This document shows positions 1,043 through 15,876 of a stretch of DNA of 15,876 nucleotides, in pieces. Each line of letters starts with the position of its first letter. Within the stretch, counting starts at the first letter, position 1. Source of the stretch: Candidatus Aminicenantes bacterium (GTDB lineage Bacteria > Acidobacteriota > Aminicenantia > Aminicenantales > Aminicenantaceae); assembly GCA_020348385.1 (NCBI GenBank), contig CP070750.1, positions 942,645-958,520 of the forward strand, read 5' to 3'. A program made the translations under genes and the position numbers. The notes below the pieces were generated by a model. It was not told the DNA's origin and ran no database searches. It saw nothing but the letters and a program-made list of their open reading frames with translations.

Positions 1043-2206
1043 TTATTCTGTGATGTCCTCGCTTGCTTTTTTTTCTTCCGTATCCATGGCCGGATCCATA
1101 ACTTTGCCCTCGGTTGGCTTTTTATCTTCAGCTCCGGCTCGGCTTTCGCCCAGGATACGGTCAAAGGCAGTCAGGCCACCAAGGGCACCGAGACCCATTG
1201 TCTCGACTGCCGTGCTGGGAACAATAATCATGGACCCCTTCTGTTTGAGACCTTCAAATACCATGTTCATAGCTCTTAGGTGGAGGGCAGCTGGGTTATC
1301 CTTGTAGTGGACTGAGGCATCTGAAAATTTCTCGGCAATCTCAGTTTCGGCTTTGCTCAGGATGATGCGGGATTGGCGTTCGCGCTCGGCCTGGGCTTTT
1401 CGGCTCATGGCATCCTCCAACGCTTTGGGGATGATGATATCCCTGATCTCAACTGACTGAACCGTGATTCCCCAGGCATTCGTCTTGGCGTCCAGCACCT
1501 GCTGGATTTCTCCCCCCAGCTTGTCTCTGTGAGAAAGCATGTCACCGAGCTCATGCTTCCCGATAGCATCCCGCAGACCTGTCTGGGCAGAGAGAGATAC
1601 CGCATCCTTGAAATTCTCCACTTCCAGCACACTCTTCTCAGCGTCCCAGACCATCCAGAAGGCAATGGCATCGACATTTACCGGGACTGTGTCTTTGGTA
1701 AGAGTCGTTTCAGCCTTGAAGTCAGTGACTCGGATCCTCTGGTCCACGTAGTTAGCCACTTTGTCTATCACCGGAAGCAAGACGAAGAGGCCAGAACCAC
1801 GAAGGCCGCGGAACTTTCCAAAGCGTAGCATGACTGCTTTCTCCCACTGGTAGGCTATCTGAATACAGGGGGCAATAAGCCCTGCTGTCACAACCGAGAT
1901 CACCAGAATCCAGCTCTCTGGTCGATGGTTCAAATAAGCCCACAGTGCGGCCATGGTGGTGAAAACAAGTACCACCTCCCATATCTGAGAGACGCGGAAG
2001 AGTACTGACAAAACGAGAGCAATTCCCACCATAGTGATCACCACCTGCAGTCGGAACGGAAACACAGATAAATGGATTAAAAGTCCGAGAAGAAAGAGAG
2101 CCACAAGGATCATGATGTTTAGCGGGCCGAAACGGAAATCGGCATGAAAGCTTGTGGCAAAGCGCTCCAGAGCACCAAGTTTGTTACTACCTAATGATTT
2201 TTTCAT
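1043..2206 (-). CDS. SPFH/band-7 (stomatin/HflKC-like) domain protein with an unusual ~120-aa four-TM N-terminal extension
   Basis: 387 aa. Residues ~125-330 carry SPFH hallmarks: MLRFGKFRGL...VDAIAFWMVWDAEKSV...AQTGLRDAIGKHELGDMLSHRDKLGGEI...ITVQSVEIRDIIIPKALEDAMSRKAQAERERQSRIILSKAETEIAEKF. Ahead of that are four hydrophobic helices, then an acidic C-tail. AAGGAG lies 6 nt before the ATG, and only 14 nt separate it from the gntR stop. Confidence 0.85.
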   Translation of the reverse strand: MKKSLGSNKLGALERFATSFHADFRFGPLNIMILVALFLLGLLIHLSVFPFRLQVVITMVGIALVLSVLFRVSQIWEVVLVFTTMAALWAYLNHRPESWILVISVVTAGLIAPCIQIAYQWEKAVMLRFGKFRGLRGSGLFVLLPVIDKVANYVDQRIRVTDFKAETTLTKDTVPVNVDAIAFWMVWDAEKSVLEVENFKDAVSLSAQTGLRDAIGKHELGDMLSHRDKLGGEIQQVLDAKTNAWGITVQSVEIRDIIIPKALEDAMSRKAQAERERQSRIILSKAETEIAEKFSDASVHYKDNPAALHLRAMNMVFEGLKQKGSMIIVPSTAVETMGLGALGGLTAFDRILGESRAGAEDKKPTEGKVMDPAMDTEEKKASEDITE

Positions 2207-2220
2207 TTTTTTCTCCTTTC

Positions 2221-2598
2221 TCAGCGGTTTTTCCGCTGTTTGAGATTTTTCATAATGTCATCGAGGGTGAATCCATAGGAGGAGGCCCTCGAAATTAACT
2301 CCTGGCAGATCTGATCAAGCATGCGTTGTCTCTCCACATCATCCTGTTTCACTTTTCTGTGGCTGACAAATGTGCCCGATCCCATTTGGGTCTCAACTAA
2401 TCCCGTGAGTTCCAGCTCAGTATAAGCCCGGCTTACTGTGTTCGGATTGATGGAAAGCTCTACAGCAAGCTGGCGCACCGTGGGGAGCTTATGACCCGCC
2501 TCCACGGCGCCGGTTGCGATGGCGGTTTTCACCTGATCGATGATCTGTCTGTAAAAGGGAATACCACTTTTCATGTCCAGCAGGAAACTCATAGTCAT
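2221..2598 (-). CDS. GntR-family transcriptional regulator, short YtrA-like subtype (wHTH only, ~125 aa)
   Basis: IPFYRQIIDQVKTAIATGAVEAGHKLPTVRQLAVELSINPNTVSRAYTELELTGLVETQMGSGTFV is a canonical GntR winged HTH. The protein is too short for a UTRA or FCD effector domain. GAGAGGAAG RBS lies 4 nt before the ATG at 2598. Confidence 0.85.
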   Translation of the reverse strand: MTMSFLLDMKSGIPFYRQIIDQVKTAIATGAVEAGHKLPTVRQLAVELSINPNTVSRAYTELELTGLVETQMGSGTFVSHRKVKQDDVERQRMLDQICQELISRASSYGFTLDDIMKNLKQRKNR

Positions 2599-2740: not shown

Positions 2741-5700
2741 TTAGAACTTAAATTCTTTGTACTTCACCTTATGGAATAGCGAATAAAGAACAGGGACGAC
2801 GCCTAGAGTGAGCATGGTTGAGAAAAGCAATCCAAAAATGATCGCTATCGCCATCGGTTTCCACATAGGGCCTCCTCCTAACCATAGAGGAAGAAGACCT
2901 CCGACTGTCGTTGCTGTCGTGAGGAGGATGGGTCTGAGGCGACGTTGAGATGCTTCGACGACTGCCCGGGCCGGTTCCCACCCGTGTTCTTTGATCTCAT
3001 ATTTTATGCGATCAAGAAGCACGATGGCGTTATTGACGACAATGCCGGCAAGGGAAACCACCCCAAGAAGCGTCATGAATCCAAAATAAGAATTCGCTAT
3101 GAGCAGTCCAAAAACAACGCCGATGATCCCTAGAGGTATAGTGGTCAGTACGATTATCGGAAGCCGTATGGAGTTGAACTGGAGGACCAGCAGCAGAATA
3201 ATGATTAAGAAGCCTATCGGCATCTTCTCTCCGATAGATGCATTGGCCTCGCCAGAACTTTCTATTTCGCCGCCTAATTCATATTTGTATCCGACGTCCC
3301 ATGCTTGGCTTTCCACCTTAAGCCATTTATCCAGTTCCTGGCTGAGCGCGATTGGAAGAGTCCCAGGTAGTACCTCGGATTGAACGGTAACCGTTTTTAA
3401 CCGGGAACGCCGAAGGATTTTTGACGGTTGCCATTGAATCTCCAGGTCGGCCACCTGTTTTAAAGGGACGTTTCTCCCTGTCATCTGAGCGTACACATTG
3501 ACTGTTTCCAGCTTTCCGATGTCCTGACGTTCGGCCCCCTCTGAACGCATGGTTACAGGGATGGTTTTGTCTTCTTCTCTAAACTGGGTAACTTCGATTC
3601 CTGTCAGAGCTGTTTGCAATGAAATGGCGATATCTCGGTTTGTCACACCCGCACGGCGGGCACGGGCTTGATTGATCTTCACCAGAATTTTTTTAGTCCT
3701 CTGCCCCCAATCGTCTCGGATATTCTTGGTGCCTGGTATTGTCCTAAGCTTTGCTTTTACACTATCAGCCAGCTCGAACACTTTACCCAGTTCTTTACCG
3801 GAGACCCGGATTTCTACAGCGGCTGTCGGAGGGCCGTATAGGAGAAGATCAAGGCGGGTACGGAGTTCAGGGAATTTATTCATACAATATTCCTCTGTTT
3901 TTGCGATCAGAGAATCGATGATGGTGTTGGATGTTGTGTTAATAAGCATGGTCGCGTATTCAGGTTTCGCCGGTACTGGGCTGTAGGCGATATAAAAGCG
4001 CGGCGCACCCGCTCCGATATAAGTGGACCAGTTAACGATGCCCTCAGGACGATCGGGCCCGGCAGCCAGCTCGCGCTGCATGAACGCTTCGATGTCTTTG
4101 ACCACAGCTTCCATTTGATGGATGGGGGTTCCTTTGGGGAGTTCGAAATCCGCCGTGTAGATGGCTTTGTCATTCCTCGGAAAAAAGATGGCAGGGATGA
4201 ACATGAAACCCTGCATAGCAATGAAGAAAATGAAAACCACAGCGATTATTGATTTGACGGGATGGCGCAGCAACCGGAGTAAAAAATGTCGGTACCGCAC
4301 ATAAAAATTTGAGTCGTAATGCTCTTCTTTCTTTTTGACCTTTACAAAATACACACAAAACAGAGGGGTAATGGCCTCGGATAAGAACCAGGAACACAGT
4401 AGGGTAATGGTGACCACTTTGAACAGCGGTCCTATGTATTCACCCATGTTCGATTCTGCCAGATAAAAGGGAAGGAAGGCCGCAGCCGTGGTGAGAGACC
4501 CGATCAACAGGGGAACACGGAGTTCTGTCGCCGAACTGATGGCTGCTTCTTTTGCCGGTACTCCGGCTTTGATCTGGACCATTATCGATTCTGACATCAC
4601 GATCGCGTTATCTACCAGTAATCCCAGGGCTATGATAAGGGCAACTAGGGACATCTGATCGAGGCCAATGTTGAGGAAAGACATGATCAAGAGGCTCATG
4701 ATCATGGTCATCGGGACCAGGGATGCTACGACCAAACCTGTGCGAATCCCTAGGGTCAGAAGCATAACCAGAATGACAATGGCGATGGCTTGGAAGAGAT
4801 TGTTTGTGAAATTACTCACAGCGCGATCGACATGCTCCGGTTGGAATGCCACGGTATCGAATTCGATCCCTATGGGATACAGGCTTTGCAATCGACTCAT
4901 CAGCTCACTGACCTCTTCCCCGAGAACGATGATATTTCCTTTTTCTCGCAAATTGATGGCCAGAGCCAGTGCGGGTATTCCCGAGGAATGGACGATGGAC
5001 TGTGGAGGATCGATATATCCTCTGTAAACTTCGGCAAGATCCTCGACATAGATCAAATCTGTTCTTCCCGGAATGCTGATCAGAGTATGCTTCAAATCCT
5101 CGACCGATTCAAAACTGCCTGTCGGCTCCAGCACGATCTTTTCTTTTCCAGTGCTGACATCTCCCCCAGGGATGACAATGTTCTGGCTCTGCAATATGTT
5201 GATGAGCTGGGAGGCTGAAAGTCCCACTTCAGCCAGGCGGGCATCGTTGTATTCAACGAATATCCGTTCATCCTGTGCCCCGTGGATCTCGACTTTGGCA
5301 ACATCATCGATGAGCAGCATCTCATTTCGCACTTCATCAGCCACTTCTTTCAGCTGCGCATACGAGAATCCTTCCCCGGTGATCGTTATGATCGTGCCGA
5401 AAATATCGCCGAATTCGTCATTAACGAAAGGTCCGATCACACCCTCTGGCAGTTCTCCTTCGGCCTTTTCCACCTTCCGCCTCAGGCTATCCCAGATAGG
5501 GCGCATCTTTTTATAGCTTTGTTCGATGTTCACAAAAACGATTGAGACACCCGATCTGGATTCGCTGTTGATAAAATCAAGTTCCGGCATTTCCTGAATG
5601 GATTTCTCCAGCTTATCCGTGATCAGGGTTTCCACTCTTTCCGGGCTCGCTCCGGGAAAATAGGTCAACACCATGGCGGTACGGATAGTAAAGCCGGGAT

Positions 5701-5809
5701 CCTCGGCGCGGGGCATTCCTTGGAATGCCATGATACCGGCCAGGAGGGCAGCAAACAAAAGAACGAAAGTGACCCGGTTTTTTTCGATGGCGGTTTGTGT
5801 AATATTCAT
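2741..5809 (-). CDS. RND efflux transporter permease subunit (AcrB/HAE-type inner-membrane pump)
   Basis: About 1022 aa. Start refined to the internal ATG at 5809 (MNITQTAIEKNRVTFVLLFAALLAGIMAF is the typical RND N-terminus), preceded by GGAGAGGAAAG. The track's ATG at 5848 would overlap the adaptor gene by 23 nt and adds an atypical MVKRSSFRERKDP extension. The protein has two large periplasmic loops and twelve TM helices (e.g. NNAIVLLDRIKYE, GPMWKPMAIAIIFGLLFST). Confidence 0.9.
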   Translation of the reverse strand: MNITQTAIEKNRVTFVLLFAALLAGIMAFQGMPRAEDPGFTIRTAMVLTYFPGASPERVETLITDKLEKSIQEMPELDFINSESRSGVSIVFVNIEQSYKKMRPIWDSLRRKVEKAEGELPEGVIGPFVNDEFGDIFGTIITITGEGFSYAQLKEVADEVRNEMLLIDDVAKVEIHGAQDERIFVEYNDARLAEVGLSASQLINILQSQNIVIPGGDVSTGKEKIVLEPTGSFESVEDLKHTLISIPGRTDLIYVEDLAEVYRGYIDPPQSIVHSSGIPALALAINLREKGNIIVLGEEVSELMSRLQSLYPIGIEFDTVAFQPEHVDRAVSNFTNNLFQAIAIVILVMLLTLGIRTGLVVASLVPMTMIMSLLIMSFLNIGLDQMSLVALIIALGLLVDNAIVMSESIMVQIKAGVPAKEAAISSATELRVPLLIGSLTTAAAFLPFYLAESNMGEYIGPLFKVVTITLLCSWFLSEAITPLFCVYFVKVKKKEEHYDSNFYVRYRHFLLRLLRHPVKSIIAVVFIFFIAMQGFMFIPAIFFPRNDKAIYTADFELPKGTPIHQMEAVVKDIEAFMQRELAAGPDRPEGIVNWSTYIGAGAPRFYIAYSPVPAKPEYATMLINTTSNTIIDSLIAKTEEYCMNKFPELRTRLDLLLYGPPTAAVEIRVSGKELGKVFELADSVKAKLRTIPGTKNIRDDWGQRTKKILVKINQARARRAGVTNRDIAISLQTALTGIEVTQFREEDKTIPVTMRSEGAERQDIGKLETVNVYAQMTGRNVPLKQVADLEIQWQPSKILRRSRLKTVTVQSEVLPGTLPIALSQELDKWLKVESQAWDVGYKYELGGEIESSGEANASIGEKMPIGFLIIILLLVLQFNSIRLPIIVLTTIPLGIIGVVFGLLIANSYFGFMTLLGVVSLAGIVVNNAIVLLDRIKYEIKEHGWEPARAVVEASQRRLRPILLTTATTVGGLLPLWLGGGPMWKPMAIAIIFGLLFSTMLTLGVVPVLYSLFHKVKYKEFKF

Positions 5810-5825
5810 GGGATCTTTCCTCTCC

Positions 5826-6920
5826 CTAAAGCTTGACCTTTTGACCATCGGAAATATGGCTGATGCCGGCTGTTACGACCAGGTCCCCGTCTGCAAGGCC
5901 TTCAAATACCTCCAGTCCCTCTGCCGTCAACTCTCCGACATTGACCGGTTTACGTCTGATAATCCCGTAGCCTTCCTCCTCGGTGAGTCGTTCAACGATA
6001 AAAACAAACCGTCCTTCGCGATCTTCTCCTACTGCTTGAGAGGGGATGATGAACCTAACGCTCTCATCTTTCAGACTGAAGTGAAATTCAGCGGTCGCGA
6101 CCATCCCGGCACGGATATCCGGGTCCGGTTGACTCAGGAGTAAAGTGACTGGGAAAGTGGTAGCCATCCCAGTGGATTTAACGCCGATTTCGGAAACGGT
6201 TGCTTGGAATTCTTTATCGGGAACGGCATCAAATTTTACGGGAACATTTTTCTTTTCTTCTATAAGGGAGATTAAAATTTCTGGAATCGAGACTTTCACT
6301 TCGATGTGAGAACCCGATGTCAGCAGTATAATCGGCATGCCCACCTGAACGTTTTCGTTTACTTCAACATGAACCTCCGCAATCGCTCCGTTCAGCGGAG
6401 CTTTTATCTTTGTGTAATTCAACTGCATTTGAGCCAATTCCCGCATCTTTTCAAGTGTTTGAACGTTGGCGTTGGCCGCTTCGGATGCCATTCTGGCTGC
6501 ATCCAAATCGCTCAACGAAGTGCTCTTTTTCTCATAAAGCGTTCTTGTCCTTTCATAATTGACATCGGCATTTCGTGCCTGGGCTTTCCCCTGCAATAAT
6601 GCGGATTCGGCCTGCTGCAGTCTGAGTTCGTAATCGTTGGAGTCCAATTCGGCCAGGAGTTGGCCAGCTCTCACCCTGGACCCGACACGAACAGCAATAC
6701 CGCTTACCGTTCCCGGTACTTTGAAACTGAGATTCGATTCTGTGCCCGCCTGAGCCACGCCTGAAAATGTGCGAACATAACTCCCCTCTGCGGAAATAGC
6801 TTCTATGTATCGTACCGGCCGGATGATCTCCTGAATTTCTGCCTCCTCCTTGCAGGAAGAAAACAGCAAAACAGCTATTAAAATAGCAACACAAGGTTTA
6901 AGCAGATTGTTGACAGTCAT
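5826..6920 (-). CDS. RND efflux periplasmic adaptor (membrane-fusion protein, HlyD/AcrA family), probable lipoprotein
   Basis: 364 aa. Signal plus LLFSSC lipobox-like N-terminus, alpha-hairpin heptads (LELRLQQAESALLQGKAQARNADVNYERTRTLYEKK), and beta-barrel/MP domains. GGAGGA RBS. Sits 17 nt downstream of the outer-membrane factor and 16 nt upstream of the RND start. Confidence 0.9.
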   Translation of the reverse strand: MTVNNLLKPCVAILIAVLLFSSCKEEAEIQEIIRPVRYIEAISAEGSYVRTFSGVAQAGTESNLSFKVPGTVSGIAVRVGSRVRAGQLLAELDSNDYELRLQQAESALLQGKAQARNADVNYERTRTLYEKKSTSLSDLDAARMASEAANANVQTLEKMRELAQMQLNYTKIKAPLNGAIAEVHVEVNENVQVGMPIILLTSGSHIEVKVSIPEILISLIEEKKNVPVKFDAVPDKEFQATVSEIGVKSTGMATTFPVTLLLSQPDPDIRAGMVATAEFHFSLKDESVRFIIPSQAVGEDREGRFVFIVERLTEEEGYGIIRRKPVNVGELTAEGLEVFEGLADGDLVVTAGISHISDGQKVKL

Positions 6921-6937
6921 GATATCCTCCGATGTTT

Positions 6938-9340
6938 TTATTGCCTTTCTTCATATATTCCATACTTTTTATAAAAAGCTCTCATGCGCTCCAGAAGTGC
7001 TTGGCGTTCCTCGTTGTCCATAAAAAACTCGAATCTTCCTGTGGAACGTTCCATTTCCAGCAGATCGAGCAAGAAATCATACACGGCATTGGCTGCCGCT
7101 TGATCGGCATTGAATGCGGCGGTTTGAGCATCCAATAAACTGAGAATGGAAACAGCTCCTTGTGAATAAGCGTTTTGTACGATCTCTAAAGATTTATTGG
7201 CGGCGTCTGCAGCATCGCGTGCCTGTTCGATACCGACATAAGAGGATCCAGTCAAATAAATAGCTGAAAGAATACGCTGCTCGATCCTTTCGGTGATGGC
7301 TTGCTTCTGAAAATTCAGATAGTCCAGCTCTTTTTGTGCTTTTGTCCTCACAACGAGTTTCTCTCCCCCTTTGAACAAGGGGAAAAATAAGCTTAATCCA
7401 ATATTCCAGGAAGTGTTATCCATTTCGGGGAACGGGAATGATTGGGATAAACCAAAACCGGAGCTGGTGCCCGCTCCTCCCTTTGCAAAAATGTGCGATA
7501 CTTCGCCTTGAAGTGCCAAGGTCGGCAACCAAGAACTGTAGGATGCAGAGCGCAGGATCCTCTCTTGTGTTTCGATCGCAGCGTTCAACATCTCCAATTC
7601 AGGAGAGGCATTCAATCCTTCCTCCACCATAAACTTGCGGAAGACGTCCATTGACCGGATATTACCTGTTAATCTCAAAACTTCTTCGCTTGTGTAAAGA
7701 GCAAGATTACCCATTCCCACTTCAAGTGTGATGAATGGCTCATCTAAAGGCCTATGCAGGAGACGGTTGAGTTCGATTTCTGCCAGCATCCGCTGAGTAC
7801 TTACCTCCATGGAAGCTTTTTGGTTTGTCGCTAAAGCACTTTCCCATCGGTAGACCTCGGCAGGGCCTGCCATTCCTGTGGTTTCTCTTACGCGGGCTAT
7901 TTCCAGGTTAGTGCGTATTCTTTTTAAATTATCGCGTTGGATCTTCTCAAAAGTTTTAGCCCGGAGCACATTCAAGTACGCCGACGATGCAGCCAGAGTT
8001 ATGTCCAGCCGCAATTGCTCAAAATCCCATTCCCTGGATTTTTGAAGCGACTTTTGTATGGATAAATTGGCCCAAACCGGCTCAGAATAAATAACCTGGG
8101 TAGCCGAAACTGAGCCGGATAATGTGCGCTGTGCCTGGGAACCAAAGCTGGCTTCAGCCCTATCTTTGTCGATAACGATACCTGTCCCCAACAGGTCTAT
8201 TTGAGGAAGCAATTGTGATCGGGCTTGTCTGACATCCTGTGCGCCAGCAGACACAAATCTTTCTCTAGCGGCTAATTCTAGATTCATTTCGATGGCTTCT
8301 TGGACTGCTGAATTCAAACTGAGTTTTCGCTCCAAGTCTGTTAATTCTTCATTCAGCAATTCAGCCTTGATCAATACTCTCCAGGCAGGATAAACACCGA
8401 TTGCCCTTGCTGTCGCCATATTTATTTTTAACTGCTCTCCGATAGATATATCCACCGGTATGGAGCCTGGTTCTTCTCCCAACAGGATTCGTTGGATGTT
8501 CAGGGCCACTCTGCGAGCCACCTGTTGGGAAACGTCGGCAATCACAGAGGCCATGATCCCACGGTCCACATCATTGACATCGAACGACGCAAAACTTGGC
8601 AGTTTGCGTTTTATCAGTTCATCGATAAGTCGGGCAGAATCTGTCCTGGGTATTTGGAAGAGAGGCCCCAGAATCACAACTTCGATCTCAGGAGATAGTT
8701 GGGCTAGGGCAAAGTCGATGGATTTGCCCACGCCGATAACCTGCAGATCGATCCCAATTTTTTTCACCAAATTTGTGCCTCGGGTTCTGATCTCGGGGAT
8801 CGCCTTCAAATAGCTGGTATCGAATAGGTATGCTGCTTTCCTGAATTCAATGACCTCTAAAAAGGCCTGAACTTCTCTTATGGTCCTTTCCGGCATATTG
8901 ACATAATTGAGATTTTTCACACCGCTTGTTCCATCTTTATACGGAAATCCCATTAATCCCGCATCGAGAATCCAGGGAGCGATAACGGGTTTGGGCAGAC
9001 TTCCTCGGGTTGCTACATCATGGGAGGCTATGACTCCCATGGCAATGATTAAATCCACCTCTGGATCGGCAAGGAGTCTATTCATTCCGGCCTCAACTCC
9101 TTTGGCTGTCCAATCCGCCACAATGCGTTTATCTTCCGGGAACTGCACATCAAAATCTGCACGAGTGAGTTCAAGAATTTCATTCAACCAAAAAGACAGG
9201 TATTGCTCATTCAATTCATAGTACCCATCCAGCACCATTCCGATGCGCTTTACAGGAAGCTTTTCGGGCGTTTGAGGAAATCCCAGGCAGGTTATTATCA
9301 ATAAGGTAGTAAATAAACTAATATAACGTCGATAATTCAT
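6938..9340 (-). CDS. fusion protein: signal peptide + COG2984/PF04392-type periplasmic solute-binding domain + TolC-like outer membrane efflux protein (two OEP repeats)
   Basis: 800 aa in one uninterrupted frame. N-terminus MNYRRYISLFTTLLIITCLGF is a signal peptide. Residues ~30-330 match the ABC_sub_bind pattern (PKPVIAPWILDAGLMGFPY..GTSGVKNLNYV, LPSFASFDVNDVDRGIMASVIAD, GSIPVDISIGEQLKINMATARAIGVYPAWRVL). Residues ~335-800 carry two OEP repeats (LSLNSAVQEAIEMNLELAARE..; ..LPTLALQGEVS..; LSILSLLDAQTAAFNADQAAANAVYDF). There is no second signal peptide at the junction, so this is a true fusion rather than two genes. GGAGGA RBS 6 nt before the ATG. Confidence 0.8.
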   Translation of the reverse strand: MNYRRYISLFTTLLIITCLGFPQTPEKLPVKRIGMVLDGYYELNEQYLSFWLNEILELTRADFDVQFPEDKRIVADWTAKGVEAGMNRLLADPEVDLIIAMGVIASHDVATRGSLPKPVIAPWILDAGLMGFPYKDGTSGVKNLNYVNMPERTIREVQAFLEVIEFRKAAYLFDTSYLKAIPEIRTRGTNLVKKIGIDLQVIGVGKSIDFALAQLSPEIEVVILGPLFQIPRTDSARLIDELIKRKLPSFASFDVNDVDRGIMASVIADVSQQVARRVALNIQRILLGEEPGSIPVDISIGEQLKINMATARAIGVYPAWRVLIKAELLNEELTDLERKLSLNSAVQEAIEMNLELAARERFVSAGAQDVRQARSQLLPQIDLLGTGIVIDKDRAEASFGSQAQRTLSGSVSATQVIYSEPVWANLSIQKSLQKSREWDFEQLRLDITLAASSAYLNVLRAKTFEKIQRDNLKRIRTNLEIARVRETTGMAGPAEVYRWESALATNQKASMEVSTQRMLAEIELNRLLHRPLDEPFITLEVGMGNLALYTSEEVLRLTGNIRSMDVFRKFMVEEGLNASPELEMLNAAIETQERILRSASYSSWLPTLALQGEVSHIFAKGGAGTSSGFGLSQSFPFPEMDNTSWNIGLSLFFPLFKGGEKLVVRTKAQKELDYLNFQKQAITERIEQRILSAIYLTGSSYVGIEQARDAADAANKSLEIVQNAYSQGAVSILSLLDAQTAAFNADQAAANAVYDFLLDLLEMERSTGRFEFFMDNEERQALLERMRAFYKKYGIYEERQ

Positions 9341-9371
9341 TCTCTATCCTCCGAAATGTTTAGAGTATATC

Positions 9372-10133
9372 TCATTTCTTCAATGACTGTATTTCCCTTT
9401 TCAGATCCTCGATATCCTTCTCTATCTTTTTGGTGTCGGATCTCTTGATAAACTTTCCCACCAGGATCGCCACCAGGATGACCAGGTACAATTGACCGAA
9501 TATCACGAGGTAGGCCGAGATCGACCTGGCGATATCTGTAGCAGGTGTGATGTCCCCGTATCCCAGCGATGTCATCGTTATGATGCTGAAGTAATAGAAC
9601 GTGGTGGCGTAGTTGCCCATGCCTTCGGTCAGGGTAAAGGAGCCGGGATAGAATAATTCTAGGCTGCTGCAGATGGCAGCACCCACCACACCGATCAGGA
9701 GGAATCCCGCGATAGCTCCGAAAATGATATTGACGTTGATCTCCTTGCTGACAGCCACATTGTATATGATGACTCCGGTTGTATAGATGATGAACAACAG
9801 GTAGATGAAGCTTAAGGGCCAGATGTTGAATAAAAGGGAAGTCCAAACAGAGATCATCGAAATCCCTCCCCAGAGGAGACCGTTCCGAAGAGACCTCTTG
9901 TCTTTGCTAACGGCCAGGACACAGAATATCAGCAATAAGATCAGCATACCGCTGCCGAGGAAATTAGCTCCGGATAATCCCAACGATGTGTAAGTATGGT
10001 AGATGATATCCTGAACTATTATGAATAACACGATAAAGACGAACCGGTATTTGACTATCCATATCCATAATTTTTTGCCATCTGCCGCACCCTTATCCTT
10101 TTTTTCTTCGATGATGATTCCTTGCTTAGTCAT
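9372..10133 (-). CDS. potassium channel family protein (compact six-TM, no charged S4, C-terminal coiled coil)
   Basis: 253 aa. Pore helix plus selectivity filter YFSIITMTSLGYGDITP (TxGYGD), five predicted helices before it and one after, and a KIEKDIEDLKREIQSLKK tail. AAGGAG RBS 7 nt before the ATG at 10133. The stop lies only 31 nt upstream of the outer-membrane factor gene start. Confidence 0.8.
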   Translation of the reverse strand: MTKQGIIIEEKKDKGAADGKKLWIWIVKYRFVFIVLFIIVQDIIYHTYTSLGLSGANFLGSGMLILLLIFCVLAVSKDKRSLRNGLLWGGISMISVWTSLLFNIWPLSFIYLLFIIYTTGVIIYNVAVSKEINVNIIFGAIAGFLLIGVVGAAICSSLELFYPGSFTLTEGMGNYATTFYYFSIITMTSLGYGDITPATDIARSISAYLVIFGQLYLVILVAILVGKFIKRSDTKKIEKDIEDLKREIQSLKK

Positions 10134-10345: not shown

Positions 10346-11602
10346 GTGGATGTGAAAAAACCTGTTCGGCTATTCAATCGCAACTTCTTTCTGCTCTGGC
10401 AAGGACAATTTGTCAGCCAGATCGGCTCCCAGGCCTATGCCATAGCCATGATGTTATGGGTAAAGCATGAAACAGGTTCGGCCTCTTTGATGGGTCTGCT
10501 GATGATGGTGTCAATGATTCCGTTTGTGGTTCTCGGCCCCTTTGCTGGAACGTTTGCTGATCATTTTTCACGGCGCAAAATAATCATATTCAGTGACGTG
10601 CTCAGTGGAGTGCCGGTACTCACCCTGGCATTTTTGATGTTTTATCGACCCAGTGCTTCTGAACTCCTGATCGTCTGTCTTTTTCTGGTGAGTGTGACTC
10701 TGGGCATTATCCGGTCGTTTTTCAATCCGGCCATTTCTGCCTCGATTCCCGATATCGTTCCTCGCGAAAAGGTGTCTGCGGCCAATTCACTGAATCAGTC
10801 TTCGGTTCAAATTTCACAATTCATTGGCCAGGGGATAGGCGGATATCTATTTGTCATCCTTGGAGCTCCCTTGCTTTTTTTGATCGACGGCGTTACCTAT
10901 TTGTTTTCAGCTTTCAGTGAATCGTTTATCAGAATCCCACAGAAAATTCCTGAAAAAAAGGGTGGCTGGCGAGATAAGTTCGGAAAATTCAAGTCAGACA
11001 CAATGGAAGGATTTCGGTTTGTTTGGGGACATGCCGGTATCAGGGCCCTCTTTTTTGCCGCCGCATTCATCAATTTTTTCGCGATTCCGATTGTCGTTCT
11101 GCTGCCATTCTATGTGGAAGATCACCTCCATGCAACTTCTGATTGGTATGGCTATATTCTTGCAGCGTACGGATTCGGTGCATTAATTGGCTATGGAATT
11201 GCTGGTGGCGTGAAAATATCCAGTCCTATCCGGTCCAAAGCCGTTATTTCTGCACTCGTTCTCATGTCTTTTTGCTTACCCATATTGAGCGTTATAGATG
11301 TACCAGTTCTTGCTCTAGTATTGATGATTCTAATCGGAGTTCTGAGTGGATTTTTCAATATAAACCTGTACACGCTGCTCCAAATCGCCGTCCCCAGTGA
11401 AATGAGAGGGAGGGTATTCGGCTTGCTCATCACTCTCACTGGCGGCTTAACACCCATTTCCATGGGCCTCAGCGGGATTATTGCGGATCTGGTAAACCAG
11501 AATATTCCCCTCATCTATGCAGTCTGCGGGATAACAACACTTTTGCTCACCATCATTACCTCATTCAGCAAGAATTTTAGGGCTTTCTTGCGTTCTGGAT
11601 AA
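10346..11602 (+). CDS. MFS transporter, MFS_3 / EntS-like (enterobactin-exporter-type) family
   Basis: 418 aa with twelve predicted TM helices. The N-terminus LFNRNFFLLWQGQFVSQIGSQAYAIAMMLWV resembles the conserved start of MFS_3 / EntS-type exporters, and DHFSRRKIIIFSD is an MFS motif-A-like loop. Start is GTG at 10346 with no better in-frame ATG. Confidence 0.85.
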   Translation: MDVKKPVRLFNRNFFLLWQGQFVSQIGSQAYAIAMMLWVKHETGSASLMGLLMMVSMIPFVVLGPFAGTFADHFSRRKIIIFSDVLSGVPVLTLAFLMFYRPSASELLIVCLFLVSVTLGIIRSFFNPAISASIPDIVPREKVSAANSLNQSSVQISQFIGQGIGGYLFVILGAPLLFLIDGVTYLFSAFSESFIRIPQKIPEKKGGWRDKFGKFKSDTMEGFRFVWGHAGIRALFFAAAFINFFAIPIVVLLPFYVEDHLHATSDWYGYILAAYGFGALIGYGIAGGVKISSPIRSKAVISALVLMSFCLPILSVIDVPVLALVLMILIGVLSGFFNINLYTLLQIAVPSEMRGRVFGLLITLTGGLTPISMGLSGIIADLVNQNIPLIYAVCGITTLLLTIITSFSKNFRAFLRSG

Positions 11603-11638
11603 GGTTTAAGACGGAGCCAAAAAAAATCATAAAAAAAC

Positions 11639-11685
11639 TTGACAAATGGACAAAAAAGCATTAGTATACACTTGGGTAGTTACTA
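11639..11685 (+). promoter_or_regulatory. putative trmB promoter with a GGGTAGTtACTA motif at or just after the TSS
   Basis: TTGACA (11639-11644), a 17-nt spacer, then TAGTAT (11662-11667). The motif GGGTAGT-T-ACTA (11674-11685) ends 2 nt before the ATG at 11688. The same motif recurs as a full palindrome at 12488-12502. Confidence 0.35.
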
Positions 11686-11687
11686 GA

Positions 11688-12470
11688 ATGGAAAAAAAGG
11701 AAATCGTTCAAGCAATCGAGAATCTTGGGCTCTCGACCTATGAAGCGAAAGCCTATTTTGCCCTCCTTTCAGAATCTCCTCTGACAGGTTATAAACTCAG
11801 CAAGAATTCCGGCGTTCCCCGTTCTCGTATATACGAAACGATCGAAAAACTCACGGCGAAAGGATTGGTTCTCTCTCAAGAGGGAGATACAACTTTGTTG
11901 ATCCCTGTCAGTCTCGAATCATTTTTGGAAAAAAAAGAAAAGGAAAGCAAACGGAACATCAATTTCCTCAAGGAAGTTCTCCCGCAGCTCAAAAAACCAG
12001 CGGAGAGTCAGGGCATCTGGACCATATCAGGACGGGATCAAATATTCGAATCCGTCAATCACTTTATTTCTCAGGCAAAAAGCCATGTTTATTTAGTTAG
12101 TTTCGACAGTGATATCATTTTCTTTGAAATTGCTCTGTCCGAGGCTGAAAAAAGGAAGGTATCCATTTTTGGCGCTTATTGCGGAGAAAAGGATTTTAAG
12201 CTAAAAAATCTGTATCCTCATCAGGGGCAGCCCTGTTCTTCCTGCAGGGATATTTCACTCACTATCGATTCAGAAGAAGCTCTTGTGGGTTGTACATTTC
12301 CTCCTGATGGAGCGAGGATCGCCCTGACCAAAAATCCCGGCATCATCCATGTGGCCGAAGAATACATCAAGCATGAGATTTTCTTGAGCCAGTTATTTAA
12401 AACGTATGATAAGGTTCCATCGGATGAATGGAATGCCATTTATCAGAAAATAATGGGTGATCTCCCATAA
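11688..12470 (+). CDS. TrmB-family transcriptional regulator (N-terminal wHTH plus C-terminal sensor-like domain)
   Basis: MEKKEIVQAIENLGLSTYEAKAYFALLSESPLTGYKLSKNSGVPRSRIYETIEKLTAKGLV is a canonical TrmB HTH. Start placed at the ATG at 11688 because the upstream ATG at 11646 sits inside the predicted promoter spacer and adds a non-conserved 14 aa. The alternative start at 11646 cannot be excluded. Confidence 0.75.
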   Translation: MEKKEIVQAIENLGLSTYEAKAYFALLSESPLTGYKLSKNSGVPRSRIYETIEKLTAKGLVLSQEGDTTLLIPVSLESFLEKKEKESKRNINFLKEVLPQLKKPAESQGIWTISGRDQIFESVNHFISQAKSHVYLVSFDSDIIFFEIALSEAEKRKVSIFGAYCGEKDFKLKNLYPHQGQPCSSCRDISLTIDSEEALVGCTFPPDGARIALTKNPGIIHVAEEYIKHEIFLSQLFKTYDKVPSDEWNAIYQKIMGDLP

Positions 12471-12549: not shown

Positions 12550-12774
12550 ATGAGATTTCGAGAAAAATTACTCATTTTATTCGTTGCGGTTATCCTATCG
12601 TTTTTGGGGTTTTACCTGATTTCCTCATCTTTTGCTGAACTGCACACTCTGGCTAGGGAGAGGGACACCGATCAGAGCGAGAGTTATCTTGCCGAATGCG
12701 ATGTGAACAAGTCCTTGCTGAATTCTTACCTCAGCAAATCTAGTTTTTCTTGTGCTACCGGTGCAAGTGAATGA
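12550..12774 (+). CDS. small hypothetical secreted or membrane protein (74 aa)
   Basis: Strong AGGAGG RBS (12538-12543) 6 nt before the ATG. The N-terminus KLLILFVAVILSFLGFYLISSSFA is hydrophobic, followed by a hydrophilic tail with two Cys. Its stop overlaps the start region of the next gene (ATGA at 12771-12774). No recognisable family. Confidence 0.4.
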   Translation: MRFREKLLILFVAVILSFLGFYLISSSFAELHTLARERDTDQSESYLAECDVNKSLLNSYLSKSSFSCATGASE

Positions 12775-12794
12775 ATCCATCAAAGGAGAAAAAC

Positions 12795-13079
12795 ATGGAT
12801 GTAAAATGGAAAGAACTGGTTTTTTTAGGGGCCTCTGTTTCGGCCCATTGTTTTCCCTGCTTCGATTATCATCTCGAACAAGCAAGAAAGTTGGGAATTT
12901 GTGAGGCAGATATTCAAGAATCCATTCAAGCAGGATTTATGGTCATGAACGGGGCGGGCGACAAAATGAAGGAAAAAATTAAACAGACATTGCCACAAAT
13001 ATCACTCAAAGGGAATGAAAGCTGCTCGAGCAATCCGACGAAAAAGAAAACCCTTCATGTTCCTGTTGTCCGGTTTTAG
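12795..13079 (+). CDS. carboxymuconolactone decarboxylase / AhpD-like family protein (Cys-x2-Cys-x3-His motif)
   Basis: AAGGAG (12782-12787) 7 nt before the ATG at 12795. MDVKWKELVFLGASVSAHCFPCFDYHLEQARKLGICEADIQESIQAG matches the AhpD/CMD core (conserved C..C...H followed by a helix). The track's ATG at 12771 lacks an RBS. Confidence 0.7.
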   Translation: MDVKWKELVFLGASVSAHCFPCFDYHLEQARKLGICEADIQESIQAGFMVMNGAGDKMKEKIKQTLPQISLKGNESCSSNPTKKKTLHVPVVRF

Positions 13080-13133
13080 CGCACAGTTCTACACACATAA
13101 AATCAGATGAGCATTTCCAGGAGCATCAAATCC

Positions 13134-13535
13134 ATGAAAGGCGCGCAATTCCATCCGAAAAAAACACTCGTTCCCCAGCCCATTGTGAAGGGCGCACGCA
13201 TGTGGAGCGTGGCCTTGGAAAAAACGATGTTCACCTATTTCGAAATAGATCCGGAAAGCCGCTTTGACCTGCATTCCCATGTGAATGAACAGATAACCAT
13301 GGTGCTGGGAGGGGAATTATTTTTCAAGTTTAAAGATAGAATCGTATGCGTGAAAAAAGGAGAGGTGATAGCCATCCCTTCAAACACCCCTCACGAGGCC
13401 TTCACACAAAAAAGTTCTGTGATTGCGGTTGATGCTTGGTCTCCTGTTATGGAAAAATATAGACAAGGGAAAAAAGATAATAATGTATTGCAGAAAGAGC
13501 GCATACTCGCCGGTTGTATCGGGATGAAGCCTTGA
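13134..13535 (+). CDS. cupin domain protein
   Basis: Cupin motif 1 HSHVNEQITMVLGG and motif 2 PSNTPHEA. AGGAG lies about 10 nt before the ATG at 13134. The alternative upstream start at 13107 has no RBS. Confidence 0.65.
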   Translation: MKGAQFHPKKTLVPQPIVKGARMWSVALEKTMFTYFEIDPESRFDLHSHVNEQITMVLGGELFFKFKDRIVCVKKGEVIAIPSNTPHEAFTQKSSVIAVDAWSPVMEKYRQGKKDNNVLQKERILAGCIGMKP

Positions 13536-13575
13536 AAAATAAAAAGATAATTATTGAACATTCAGGGAAATGGAT

Positions 13576-14466
13576 ATGGATAAACTTAAATTTTATATTG
13601 TTGATGTTTTTGCAGAAACAAAATTGACGGGCAACCAGCTTGCTGTCTTTATTAATGCAAAATCTCTTGGTACGGACAAAATGCAACGCATAGCCAAAGA
13701 AATGAACTTTTCGGAAACCACATTTATTACTTCAAATGAAGATCGTGGAAACGGATACGATGTTCGTATCTTTACTCCAGAAAATGAACTCCCTTTTGCC
13801 GGACACCCTACATTGGGAACGGCATATGTTATCCAGAATGAAATCAAAAAAAGAATGGTAGACATAATTAATTTAAATCTGAAAGTGGGGCAAATACCCG
13901 TCTCGTTTCTATCTAAAAACAATCAGATAGATTTCGTTTGGATGAAGCTCAAAACGCCGATTTTTGAACATGAATATGGGCCAGAACCGTGGACGGAAAT
14001 GCTGGGATTGGAGAAGGACGATTTTGAAAAGGATTATCCTATCTGCGAAGTGTCTGCTGGTGTTTTTTGTTTTATTGTTCCTCTCAAGACCCTCAACGCA
14101 GTAAAAAGAGCACAAATAAACCTGAATAAATTTTATGAGTTCATCAAAAATTCAAATGCTAAGGCGACTCTTGTTTTTGCTAAAGAGACCTATAAAGAAG
14201 AAAATGATCTTAATGTCAGATTCTTCGCACATTATTATGGGGTGTCCGAAGATCCGGCCACCGGAAGTGCCAATGGATGTCTAGCAGCCTATCTTGTCAA
14301 GTACAATTACTTCGGCGAGAACCAAATTGATGTCCGAGTAGAACAGGGTTATGAGATAGGGAGACCGTCGCTGCTTCTTCTTAAAGCAGAACACAAAGGC
14401 GAGGATATCGACATCAATGTAGGAGGAAAGGTATTTATGGTTGCAAAGGGAGAATTTTTTATATGA
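13576..14466 (+). CDS. PhzF-family (phenazine biosynthesis-like / DAP-epimerase-fold) isomerase
   Basis: KFYIVDVFAETKLTGNQLAVF..SETTFI..DVRIFTPENELPFAGHPTLGTAYV is a canonical PhzF/YddE N-terminal half with the catalytic-region Glu. A C-terminal duplicate half (..SEDPATGSANGCLAAYL) is present. Start placed at the second ATG (13576) for better spacing from GGGAAA. Confidence 0.85.
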   Translation: MDKLKFYIVDVFAETKLTGNQLAVFINAKSLGTDKMQRIAKEMNFSETTFITSNEDRGNGYDVRIFTPENELPFAGHPTLGTAYVIQNEIKKRMVDIINLNLKVGQIPVSFLSKNNQIDFVWMKLKTPIFEHEYGPEPWTEMLGLEKDDFEKDYPICEVSAGVFCFIVPLKTLNAVKRAQINLNKFYEFIKNSNAKATLVFAKETYKEENDLNVRFFAHYYGVSEDPATGSANGCLAAYLVKYNYFGENQIDVRVEQGYEIGRPSLLLLKAEHKGEDIDINVGGKVFMVAKGEFFI

Positions 14467-14502
14467 ATTATCCTATTTGCCGCCATTTCAGGAGGCATTT
14501 AA

Positions 14503-15129
14503 ATGAACAGCAAAGATTATTTTGAAAAGGTCGCCGATCAATGGGATCAAATGAGAAGAAGCTTTTTTTCTGACAAAGTGCGGAAAGTGGCTGTTGCAAA
14601 AGCGGATATTCAGGCCGGGAAATTGGCGGCGGATATCGGAGCAGGGACTGGTTTTGTAACTGAGGAGTTGGTTCAAAATGGCTTAAAGGTTATTGCTGTC
14701 GATCAATCGGGAGGCATGCTCGAAGAGATGAAAAAAAAGTTTGGCCGGATCGATACTGTCGAATACAGGATAGGAGATTTCAATAACTTACCTCTCCAGA
14801 ATGAAACAGTGGATTATGTTTTTGCCAACATGTATTTGCATCATGTCGACTTACCCCAGGTGGCGATAGAAGAGATGGCAAGAGTTTTAAAGCCAGGAGG
14901 CAAAGTTGTCATCACTGATATGGACGAACATAAATTCGAGTTCCTGAAGAAAGAACAGCACGACCGCTGGCTGGGATTTAAAAGGGAGGATGTCGAGCGC
15001 TGGTTTAATGAAGCAGGGCTGAAAAATGTAAGAGTAGAATGTATGGAGGAGGAGTGCTGCGCAGATTCTGTGGAATGCGGGGAGAAAGCGAGCGTCAGCT
15101 TATTCGTAGCTTATGGTGAGAAATCATGA
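14503..15129 (+). CDS. class I SAM-dependent methyltransferase (Methyltransf_11-like) with a Cys-rich C-terminal tail
   Basis: AGGAGG (14489-14494) 8 nt before the ATG. Motif I DIGAGTGFVTEEL, an acidic beta2 end (VIAVDQS), motif II DYVFANMYLHH and motif III LKPGGKVVITD. The C-terminus reads CMEEECCADSVECGE (C-x4-CC-x5-C). Confidence 0.85.
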   Translation: MNSKDYFEKVADQWDQMRRSFFSDKVRKVAVAKADIQAGKLAADIGAGTGFVTEELVQNGLKVIAVDQSGGMLEEMKKKFGRIDTVEYRIGDFNNLPLQNETVDYVFANMYLHHVDLPQVAIEEMARVLKPGGKVVITDMDEHKFEFLKKEQHDRWLGFKREDVERWFNEAGLKNVRVECMEEECCADSVECGEKASVSLFVAYGEKS

Positions 15130-15876
15130 ACTCGATTTCCGTTTTTTCCTTCTCAGGGTTTCAATAGTAAAATCTTCAAAGGTGATGGCGATGGCGATTT
15201 TGGTCATTAAAGTGAAAATAAGAAAGCCGATGGCAAAGATGGCCACCGAAATTTTGATTTCTGTCATAGACGGCCTGTAGATGTATATCTGCCCCAATGT
15301 ATCCGGAGTGAATCCGGGGATGAGCAGGGCGATTCCTTTTTCGATATAAACACCGAACCAGATTAAAATGGCTCCTAGGTTTAAGGTAATGACGTTTTTC
15401 CTCGTTTTGGGGATTAAAAAGAGCAAAAAGGCAATGATGCTTATGATCAATGAGACCCAGCCGTAGAACACGATATCACGGTTTTCCCCGACCCCGATAA
15501 AAAGGTATTTCAGATGGACCAGATGTTCTGTATCCGAGTATATTTCTTTGAACACTTCGGCGCCGAAAAAAAACAGGTTGATAAACATGGCATAAGCCAT
15601 AAGCTCGGCGATCTTCCAGATCGCTTCCTGTTTGATCTCGAACGTTGTGGTTTTTTTCAAAATCTGGAAGAGGATGATCAACACTGCCGGACCGGAGCAG
15701 AATGCCGATGCCAAAAATTTAGGAGCTAACAGCGCGCTGTTCCAATATGGTCGGCCGGCAAGCCCATTGTAAAGGAATGCGGTTACAGTATGGATACTGA
15801 TGGCAAGCGGGATAGAAAACAAAATAAACGGATTCAATAGCTTTTTGTTGTATTCCTTCTTGTAGAAGAGAGTATT
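15124..15876 (-). CDS. NrfD/PsrC-like polytopic membrane protein, C-terminal ~250 aa (gene continues beyond the window end)
   Basis: Minus-strand frame is open to the window edge; the track's M is an internal TTG. There are six TM helices, and the penultimate region YIYRPSMTEIKISVAIFAIGFLIF resembles the Y-x-P-S/T-x-x-E C-terminal signature of NrfD/PsrC quinol-interacting subunits. Its stop overlaps the methyltransferase stop (TCATGA at 15124-15129). Confidence 0.45.
   Translation of the reverse strand, partial: NTLFYKKEYNKKLLNPFILFSIPLAISIHTVTAFLYNGLAGRPYWNSALLAPKFLASAFCSGPAVLIILFQILKKTTTFEIKQEAIWKIAELMAYAMFINLFFFGAEVFKEIYSDTEHLVHLKYLFIGVGENRDIVFYGWVSLIISIIAFLLFLIPKTRKNVITLNLGAILIWFGVYIEKGIALLIPGFTPDTLGQIYIYRPSMTEIKISVAIFAIGFLIFTLMTKIAIAITFEDFTIETLRRKKRKSSS

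Follow-up and report, generated by a model that had tools for sequence, protein, structure and literature searches.

An efflux duct with a periplasmic-binding-protein fold built into its own chain is encoded in a stretch of DNA from Candidatus Aminicenantes bacterium (Acidobacteriota, Aminicenantia; GenBank assembly GCA_020348385.1, contig CP070750.1, forward-strand positions 942,645 to 958,520). This stretch, 15,876 nucleotides long and hereafter called the window, contains the operon of an RND-type tripartite pump in which the TolC-like outer-membrane factor (OMF) carries an additional folded domain, here the N-domain, between its signal peptide and its first TolC helix. The fusion gene occupies positions 6938..9340 on the reverse strand as a single open reading frame (ORF) of 800 codons, which coincides exactly with the interval flagged by a first-pass annotation of this DNA. 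The N-domain belongs to the ABC_sub_bind fold family and lacks the functional hallmarks of its relatives: the ligand-contact residues, the importer partners and the free or lipid-anchored state. The interpretation favoured here, with a probability of about 0.5, is that it acts as a built-in accessory collar that stabilises, positions or helps to assemble a non-lipidated duct. The gene and its product are organized as follows.

9348..9352, reverse strand: Shine-Dalgarno sequence GGAGG, 7 nt 5' of the fusion-gene ATG, read directly from the sequence
9275..9340, reverse strand: signal peptide, aa 1 to approximately 22 (MNYRRY, a 15-residue hydrophobic core and PQ), from the translation
8345..9259, reverse strand: N-terminal class-I periplasmic-binding-protein fold, aa 28-332, a divergent ABC_sub_bind/PF04392 subfamily
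8318..8344, reverse strand: linker of approximately 9 residues, aa 333-341, from the binding-protein fold to the first TolC helix (sequence and secondary structure of the model)
7016..8317, reverse strand: complete TolC/OMF module, aa 342-775, with two OEP repeats (Pfam, model, Foldseek and invariant columns)
6938..7015, reverse strand: C-terminal helix and tail, aa 776-800, plus the stop codon (helix 776-792 in the model)

The first-pass annotation had read this gene as a true fusion rather than two adjacent genes, and the comparative data bear this out. In a search covering 5.8 billion proteins, 1748 homologues of the fusion protein were recovered. The best 120 share 46–100% identity and the same architecture, nearly all of them being approximately 800 aa long; they include an identical protein on a 4.35-Mb contig of a Candidatus Aminicenantes metagenome-assembled genome (MAG), as well as proteins from Zixibacteria and Calditrichota. 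The continuous frame is kept in approximately 275 non-redundant full-length homologues, all from MAGs and distributed over at least eight phyla. A scan of one genome per species yielded 122 relatives, 80 of which, again all from MAGs, were kept. Their hosts are Acidobacteriota (Thermoanaerobaculia, Terriglobia and Vicinamibacterales), Gemmatimonadota, Calditrichota (Calditrichia), KSB1, Zixibacteria, Krumholzibacteriia, Desulfobacterota/Thermodesulfobacteriota, several Gammaproteobacteria and Myxococcota. The N-domain and the TolC module share one reading frame in 78 of these 80 loci. The exceptions are L079, where the N-domain ORF without a TolC match ends at the contig edge, and L055 from a Chromatiales MAG, where a 460-aa N-domain ORF devoid of a TolC part (6569-8604) runs directly into an RND fragment, an arrangement that probably reflects a rearrangement or misassembly. 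The TolC module stops short in a further pair of loci (L037 and L082). The fusion is old.

When the N-domain alone was searched against 1.84 billion cluster representatives, 1970 matches were obtained, 509 of them at E ≤ 1e-30. Among the best 150, a full TolC module is present in 107, the TolC part is cut by the contig end in 31, and 12 are short fragments; a clearly free-standing N-domain was not encountered among these 150 representatives. The linker (aa 333-341) contains no stop, frameshift-prone run or hydrophobic segment, and nucleotides 8280-8400, which span the junction, are likewise free of stop codons, of long single-base runs and of any hydrophobic stretch usable as a second signal peptide, in keeping with the earlier statement that the TolC part has none of its own. 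That two neighbouring genes, one for a binding protein and one for a TolC protein, were joined by a sequencing or assembly frameshift is a notion that has in its favour only that the architecture is rare in model organisms. It is set against a frame that continues unbroken through independent assemblies and phyla, a TolC part devoid of its own export signal and the dearth of separate N-domains among the best matches, and its probability is practically nil: the comparative data rule the frameshift out.

No description of a TolC/binding-protein architecture, and hence no characterised example, was found in the open-access literature searched, including work on PF04392/ABC_sub_bind/COG2984, a large review of tripartite pumps and both papers on the TolC-associated lipoprotein YbjP, which agrees with what the first-pass annotation had stated. 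The architecture exists only as automatic annotation, exemplified by the name given to homologues at JGI, 'outer membrane protein TolC/ABC-type uncharacterized transport system substrate-binding protein'.

The duct portion is readily recognized. A domain search for ABC_sub_bind followed by two OEP repeats, the composition proposed at the outset, found all three elements, the OEP (PF02321) match covering two tandem stretches with 137.8 bits against a cutoff of 22. In the prediction, each repeat combines a long helical hairpin with a beta-hairpin and a short helix. The full-length AlphaFold2 monomer model has a predicted local distance difference test score (pLDDT) of 87.3 and a predicted template-modelling score (pTM) of 0.74; its N-domain closes with a strand at 327-329, and residues 342-352 form the first helix of the TolC module. 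The top Foldseek matches of this model are TolC (1EK9), OprM and CusC, with E values from ∼1e-17 to 1e-20 (best 8e-20) and coverage of the entire targets; across the group formed by TolC, OprM, CusC, VceC, CmeC and MtrE, E ranges from 8e-20 to 1e-13 and the target-normalized template-modelling score (TMt) from 0.7 to 0.8, again over whole targets. The alignment of the TolC module begins at the canonical mature TolC N-terminus, directly after the N-domain. The hairpin-tip glycines G489 and G728 are invariant in the family, and R785 of the C-terminal helix is at least 90% conserved in the homologue alignment. By repeats, fold and operon, the fusion protein belongs to the broad OMF/TolC family. 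Its NCBIfam scores lie below the cutoffs of both curated subfamilies, TIGR01844 TolC (95.2 against 225.15) and TIGR01845 NodT (58.2 against 210.05), and on these sequence scores the fusion duct is classed as a divergent OMF clade outside the two.

The partners expected of such a duct are encoded directly downstream, and the gene therefore sits in a complete tripartite RND operon, as had been proposed.

5826..6920, reverse strand: RND periplasmic adaptor (membrane fusion protein, MFP), 364 aa; TIGR01730 RND_mfp at 246.5 bits against a cutoff of 94.9, with Pfam HlyD_D23 and HlyD_3
2741..5848, reverse strand: RND inner-membrane pump, 1035 aa; Pfam ACR_tran at 540 bits, full length

The MFP gene starts 17 nt past the stop codon of the fusion gene and the listed RND ORF overlaps its end by 23 nt. 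From the positions of its Pfam domains, the adaptor hairpin is apparently of AcrA-like length; the pump scores under every NCBIfam equivalog cutoff. The association extends to the relatives, a point that the first-pass annotation had put forward for checking: an RND gene is present in 51 of the 53 loci with at least 4.5 kb of downstream sequence. In 43 of these 51 the order OMF–MFP–RND on one strand is that of the window, in six the genes are convergent and in two the pump genes lie upstream. When all neighbouring ORFs of 85 loci were clustered, no conserved neighbour emerged besides MFP and RND, so that the neighbourhood gives no hint of the substrate. Genes for an ABC permease or ATPase are absent from the window, and none is conserved across the 85 loci. 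The fusion protein is a dedicated exit duct of an RND pump. In three loci, L019 and L023 (5.6 kb of downstream sequence each) and L069 (3.6 kb), the fused duct has no recognisable MFP or RND gene nearby; by analogy with E. coli tolC, such a duct may be an orphan shared between pumps.

The signal peptide is, from its sequence, predicted to be of type I, cleaved and not that of a lipoprotein. Anchoring through a lipid at Cys18 was considered and is ruled out: this cysteine of the signal peptide is not conserved among homologues, and a lipobox is present in just 6 of 184. In many homologues (P0001-P0120) the signal peptide ends in a small residue followed by Gln, for example ...SFS/Q, ...FA/Q and ...SG/Q, and a motif composed of a small residue and Gln, located within 22 aa before the first strand, occurs in 54% of sequences against 26% of background windows. 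A 'Q-rule', by which cleavage by signal peptidase I leaves an N-terminal pyroglutamate, has reportedly been described for Bacteroidetes; by analogy, it may extend to the phyla that carry the fusion.

The first-pass annotation had assigned the N-terminal region to a solute-binding fold of the ABC_sub_bind/COG2984 type, and three lines of evidence converge on the same assignment. The Pfam match to ABC_sub_bind (PF04392) at aa 86-326 is a marginal pass, with 26.2 bits against a gathering cutoff of 25.9; a precomputed match to the same family is present in approximately 60% of the top 120 homologues. A profile of the N-domain built from 28 family members and compared with PF04392 structures matches 3LKV (E 4e-9) and, less strongly, 3LFT (E 6e-5). 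In the Foldseek search with the full model, the TolC-type matches are followed by three solved PF04392 proteins, 3LFT (E 1e-11), 3LKV and 6HNI, which correspond to Streptococcus pneumoniae SP1069, Vibrio cholerae VC_1101 and Clostridioides difficile CD0873 and bind Trp, Phe and Tyr, respectively. In the same search, the model is closer to the closed form of CD0873 (TMt 0.75) than to the open form (0.62). The N-domain modelled alone reaches a pLDDT of 92.2. GLR, mGluR, GABA-B and CaSR are also among the fold matches. The N-domain is thus a genuine yet very divergent member of the fold family, sharing 14–17% identity with the solved proteins.

The family has its own set of invariant N-domain motifs, namely IGxVxDGPWE (D38, G39), KPVIAP, NLNY (N143, Y146) and ARRVALNVQRILLGEEPGSIP (R276, R277), together with an invariant D126. 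Over the 275 non-redundant sequences, the mean pairwise identity is 0.43 for the N-domain against 0.47 for the TolC part; conservation of the N-domain nearly equals that of the duct, and the domain is therefore under selection.

The next question is whether the amino-acid pocket has been kept. Solved members of PF04392 bind Trp, Phe or Tyr by means of shared residues, which in TrpX are T108, A127, T129, D152 and N233, in addition to specificity positions (PMC9382623, PMC6816091). The pocket residues were located in the 3LFT sequence by their spacing and transferred to the fusion family by profile alignment, and hhalign reproduced the mapping of the C-terminal half. The equivalent positions are occupied as follows.

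Position 103, equivalent to the canonical T: mostly V
Position 123, equivalent to the canonical A: F, Y, W or V
Position 125, equivalent to the canonical T: I or L
Position 149, equivalent to the canonical D: L, F, I, V or S
Position 229, equivalent to the canonical N: H, Q, R or N

The specificity position Q284/Y279 corresponds to position 270, which is variable in the fusion family. Across the 275 sequences, the pocket-equivalent positions have a mean entropy of 2.79 bits against a domain mean of 1.99 and are 64–99% hydrophobic, with polar position 229 as the sole exception. A working solute receptor of the usual kind, as the first-pass annotation implied, is not what these positions describe: the canonical contacts have been replaced and vary more than the domain average. 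In terms of sequence, the pattern fits a collapse of the pocket into the protein core, or a loosely specific hydrophobic groove, rather than a conserved polar ligand bound in the manner usual for the family. Gating by some other ligand is at most conceivable.

These observations bear directly on the proposal that the N-domain is a classical substrate-binding protein, delivering solute to a transporter for recruitment or import and fused to a duct by chance. Its appeal derives from the Pfam family, which consists of binding proteins of ABC importers, and from the closest structures, all of which hold an aromatic amino acid. Four of the five contacts to the ligand backbone are now hydrophobic and the fifth, N, has become a variable H/Q/R; no ABC permease or ATPase genes stand alongside in 85 loci; and a linker of approximately nine residues would hold the domain at the TolC equator, out of reach of a docking face at the inner membrane. 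With partner genes absent, contacts lost and the inner membrane unreachable, this proposal is largely refuted and highly improbable.

In the assembled pump, the periplasmic entrance of the duct is covered by adaptor hairpins. It was at this mouth that the first-pass annotation had placed the binding domain, a location that TolC topology does not support. The N-terminal helix of TolC starts at the equatorial domain and rises to the membrane (PMC13082787), and the linker joins the N-domain to this helix. As the linker comprises only approximately nine residues, the N-domain is probably located on the exterior of the barrel at the equatorial belt, around half a barrel length away from the entrance. 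In 2025–26 a previously overlooked lipoprotein, YbjP, was discovered as an accessory on the equatorial surface of E. coli TolC (PMC13095208, PMC13082787); it binds at the equatorial domain in a 3:3 ratio (PMC13095208). The same outer surface of the barrel is also the path of the lipidated N-terminal arm of OprM and CusC (PMC13095208, PMC13082787).

In the collar interpretation, the TolC module would trimerize, after export and cleavage of the signal peptide, into a beta-barrel plus an alpha-barrel, and the resulting duct would dock tip-to-tip with the adaptor, an expectation based on the conserved tip glycines and the AcrA-like length of the adaptor hairpin. Each of the three protomers would permanently bear one binding-protein-fold domain of approximately 300 residues, and the three domains would form a collar on the barrel exterior, between the outer membrane and the peptidoglycan. 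This collar would be the fused counterpart of what YbjP or a lipid arm provides to other ducts. The ancestral amino-acid pocket would have turned into a variable hydrophobic core or groove, and the domain would no longer be a classical solute receptor. It is from these elements taken together that we infer the scaffolding role.

Several points weigh against the collar. The position of the N-domain is read from TolC topology, and YbjP, the analogue on which the comparison draws, is itself without a clearly established function. Mean-field direct coupling analysis was too noisy to outline an interface between the N-domain and TolC: an unfiltered run was dominated by gap-rich columns, and the gap-filtered run, with an effective sequence number (Meff) of ∼221 for 721 columns, returned some plausible intra-domain contacts together with impossible inter-domain pairs that connect the N-domain with extracellular loop residues. 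A weak cluster that links residues 40, 41, 43 and 51 with 338, 529 and 548 is suggestive at most. The pocket mapping of the N-terminal lobe comes from one profile alignment at ∼15% identity, and a shift by one or two positions is possible. Moreover, the invariant residues D38-G39 (after strand 1), D126, N143 and Y146 sit in loops that normally line the cleft, and the invariant R276 and R277 are close in sequence to a pocket position; judged by sequence, this arrangement would equally fit a conserved non-canonical ligand site, for instance for an anionic amphiphile.

Such a site could make the duct responsive to a ligand. The N-domain may still be a Venus-flytrap sensor for a ligand other than an amino acid; closure of the domain would be relayed by the linker and the equatorial domain to the iris that the TolC helices form, altering the opening of the duct or the assembly of the pump. 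The bilobed fold is intact and confidently modelled (pLDDT 92), the N-domain is conserved about as strongly as the duct, invariant residues occupy the cleft-lining loops with the Arg-Arg pair near the pocket, the short linker makes mechanical coupling plausible, and the same fold gates channels or receptors elsewhere (GLR, mGluR, GABA-B, CaSR). The positions equivalent to ligand contacts are, however, among the more variable and are mostly hydrophobic, unlike what a conserved specific ligand would impose; the neighbourhood, in which only MFP and RND are conserved, suggests no ligand; and for YbjP, whose binding site on TolC lies in the same region, neither an allosteric nor a signalling role was seen (PMC13082787). 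On balance, a duct tuned by a ligand in this way is possible, though unlikely. Its most developed form, in which the fused Venus-flytrap domains use a remodelled pocket of a non-canonical kind to sense a periplasmic or envelope molecule and, through the equatorial domain, govern the opening of TolC or the assembly of the pump, is viewed as unlikely. It would, if true, constitute the first direct control of an efflux pump by a small molecule at the level of the outer-membrane component.

A related proposal views the N-domain as a site for a hydrophobic or amphipathic molecule of the envelope or a substrate of the pump, such as a fatty acid, a lipid head group or a hopanoid-like or surfactant-like compound. 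The domain might then buffer cargo near the outer membrane, or substitute for a lipid anchor by tethering the duct to the inner leaflet. The hydrophobic character of all pocket-equivalent positions except 229, the invariance of both arginines, the fact that the family has no N-terminal lipid anchor, a feature common in OMFs, and the expected location of the N-domain just beneath the outer membrane (topology, PMC13082787) speak for it. RND systems, in contrast, take up their substrate at the pump in the inner membrane, a long way from the equatorial belt. We know of no route from the exterior of a TolC barrel into its lumen, which further counts against such a site. A collapsed protein core would just as typically show variable hydrophobic positions, and the cavity is putative. 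This proposal is considered decidedly unlikely.

Beyond the pump genes, the window contains a regulator directly 3' of the pump gene.

2221..2598, reverse strand: GntR-family helix-turn-helix regulator; Pfam GntR at 60.5 bits

Beside it, past the RND gene on the same strand, lies a gene for an SPFH/Band-7 protein (1043-2206, reverse strand). These two genes may be a local regulator and a membrane scaffold; their linkage to the pump is not conserved in related loci. On the other side, upstream, 31 nt separate the fusion gene from the end of a 253-aa ORF (9372-10133, reverse strand) with a near-threshold match to Ion_trans_2, the pore of K+ channels (22.2 against 22.5 bits). A promoter-like site at 10200-10173 precedes this ORF, which may be transcribed together with the pump and is not a conserved neighbour in other loci. 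A scan of the operon region for promoters and terminators detected sites no more numerous than in shuffled controls. In a Zixibacteria MAG (L001, 1099-6381) and in an 8-Mb genome (L003, 1-1493), the same cluster, which encodes a TLC/HEAT-repeat protein, a cNMP-binding protein and a response regulator, precedes the fusion-pump operon, and PAS histidine kinases are found directly upstream in L003 and L004. The upstream genes of these three loci may represent a lineage-specific regulatory context. The divergent side of the window harbours genes for an MFS_3-type transporter and a TrmB-family regulator (10346-12470, forward strand), then CMD, cupin, PhzF-like, SAM-methyltransferase and NrfD-like genes (12771-15837), with no evident link to the pump.

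TolC-type ducts are usually seen as passive, bare channels, with a lipid anchor as the sole N-terminal variation. Many uncultured lineages, among them Acidobacteriota, Gemmatimonadota, Zixibacteria, Calditrichota and Desulfobacterota, have fused a folded domain far larger than YbjP onto what appears to be the surface that YbjP occupies, and have kept it under selection of a strength matching that on the duct. This points to equatorial decoration as a general trait of efflux ducts and one that matters for their function, and the fusion offers a natural single-chain system for the study of its effect. Were the N-domain to bind a ligand, a new mode of pump regulation would emerge. In addition, the fusion cleanly illustrates how a solute-binding fold can be taken out of transport for other use.

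A comparison with known systems places the fusion protein between several families. With OMFs such as TolC, OprM and CusC it shares the two OEP repeats, a fold that superposes on the entire structures, the tip glycines and the OMF–MFP–RND operon; it differs from them in approximately 310 extra residues, a folded domain, between the signal peptide and the first TolC helix. In lipidated OMFs of the NodT/OprM type a lipobox Cys ends the signal peptide, whereas the fusion family is without this feature.

With respect to the aromatic amino-acid binders of PF04392/COG2984, to which Streptococcus suis TrpX belongs along with the three solved proteins named above, the fused N-domain has exchanged the T, A, T, D and N contacts. 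It is neither free nor lipid-anchored, and no ABC importer genes are found nearby. The invariant DGPWE and RR motifs are the fusion family's own.

YbjP (DUF3828; PDB 9TG4 and 9V52) occupies the outer surface of TolC in a 3:3 arrangement from the equatorial domain to the membrane, the region to which the fused domain appears to be attached, and substitutes for the lipidated N-terminal arm of other OMFs. The two are unrelated in fold and sequence: YbjP is a separate, lipid-anchored polypeptide of around half the size, whereas the fusion protein has no DUF3828 match in Pfam and no lipobox, and its domain adopts a class-I periplasmic-binding-protein fold. Their likeness is therefore one of inferred position and role only.

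Finally, the fusion invites comparison with Venus-flytrap fusions, represented by iGluR/GLR, GABA-B and the hybrid two-component sensor BT1754, which turn up as weaker fold matches. Ligand binding and signal transmission have been demonstrated for these proteins, whereas the fusion described here is known from sequence and models and has an outer-membrane duct as its partner; in all of them, a binding-protein fold is mounted covalently on a membrane machine.

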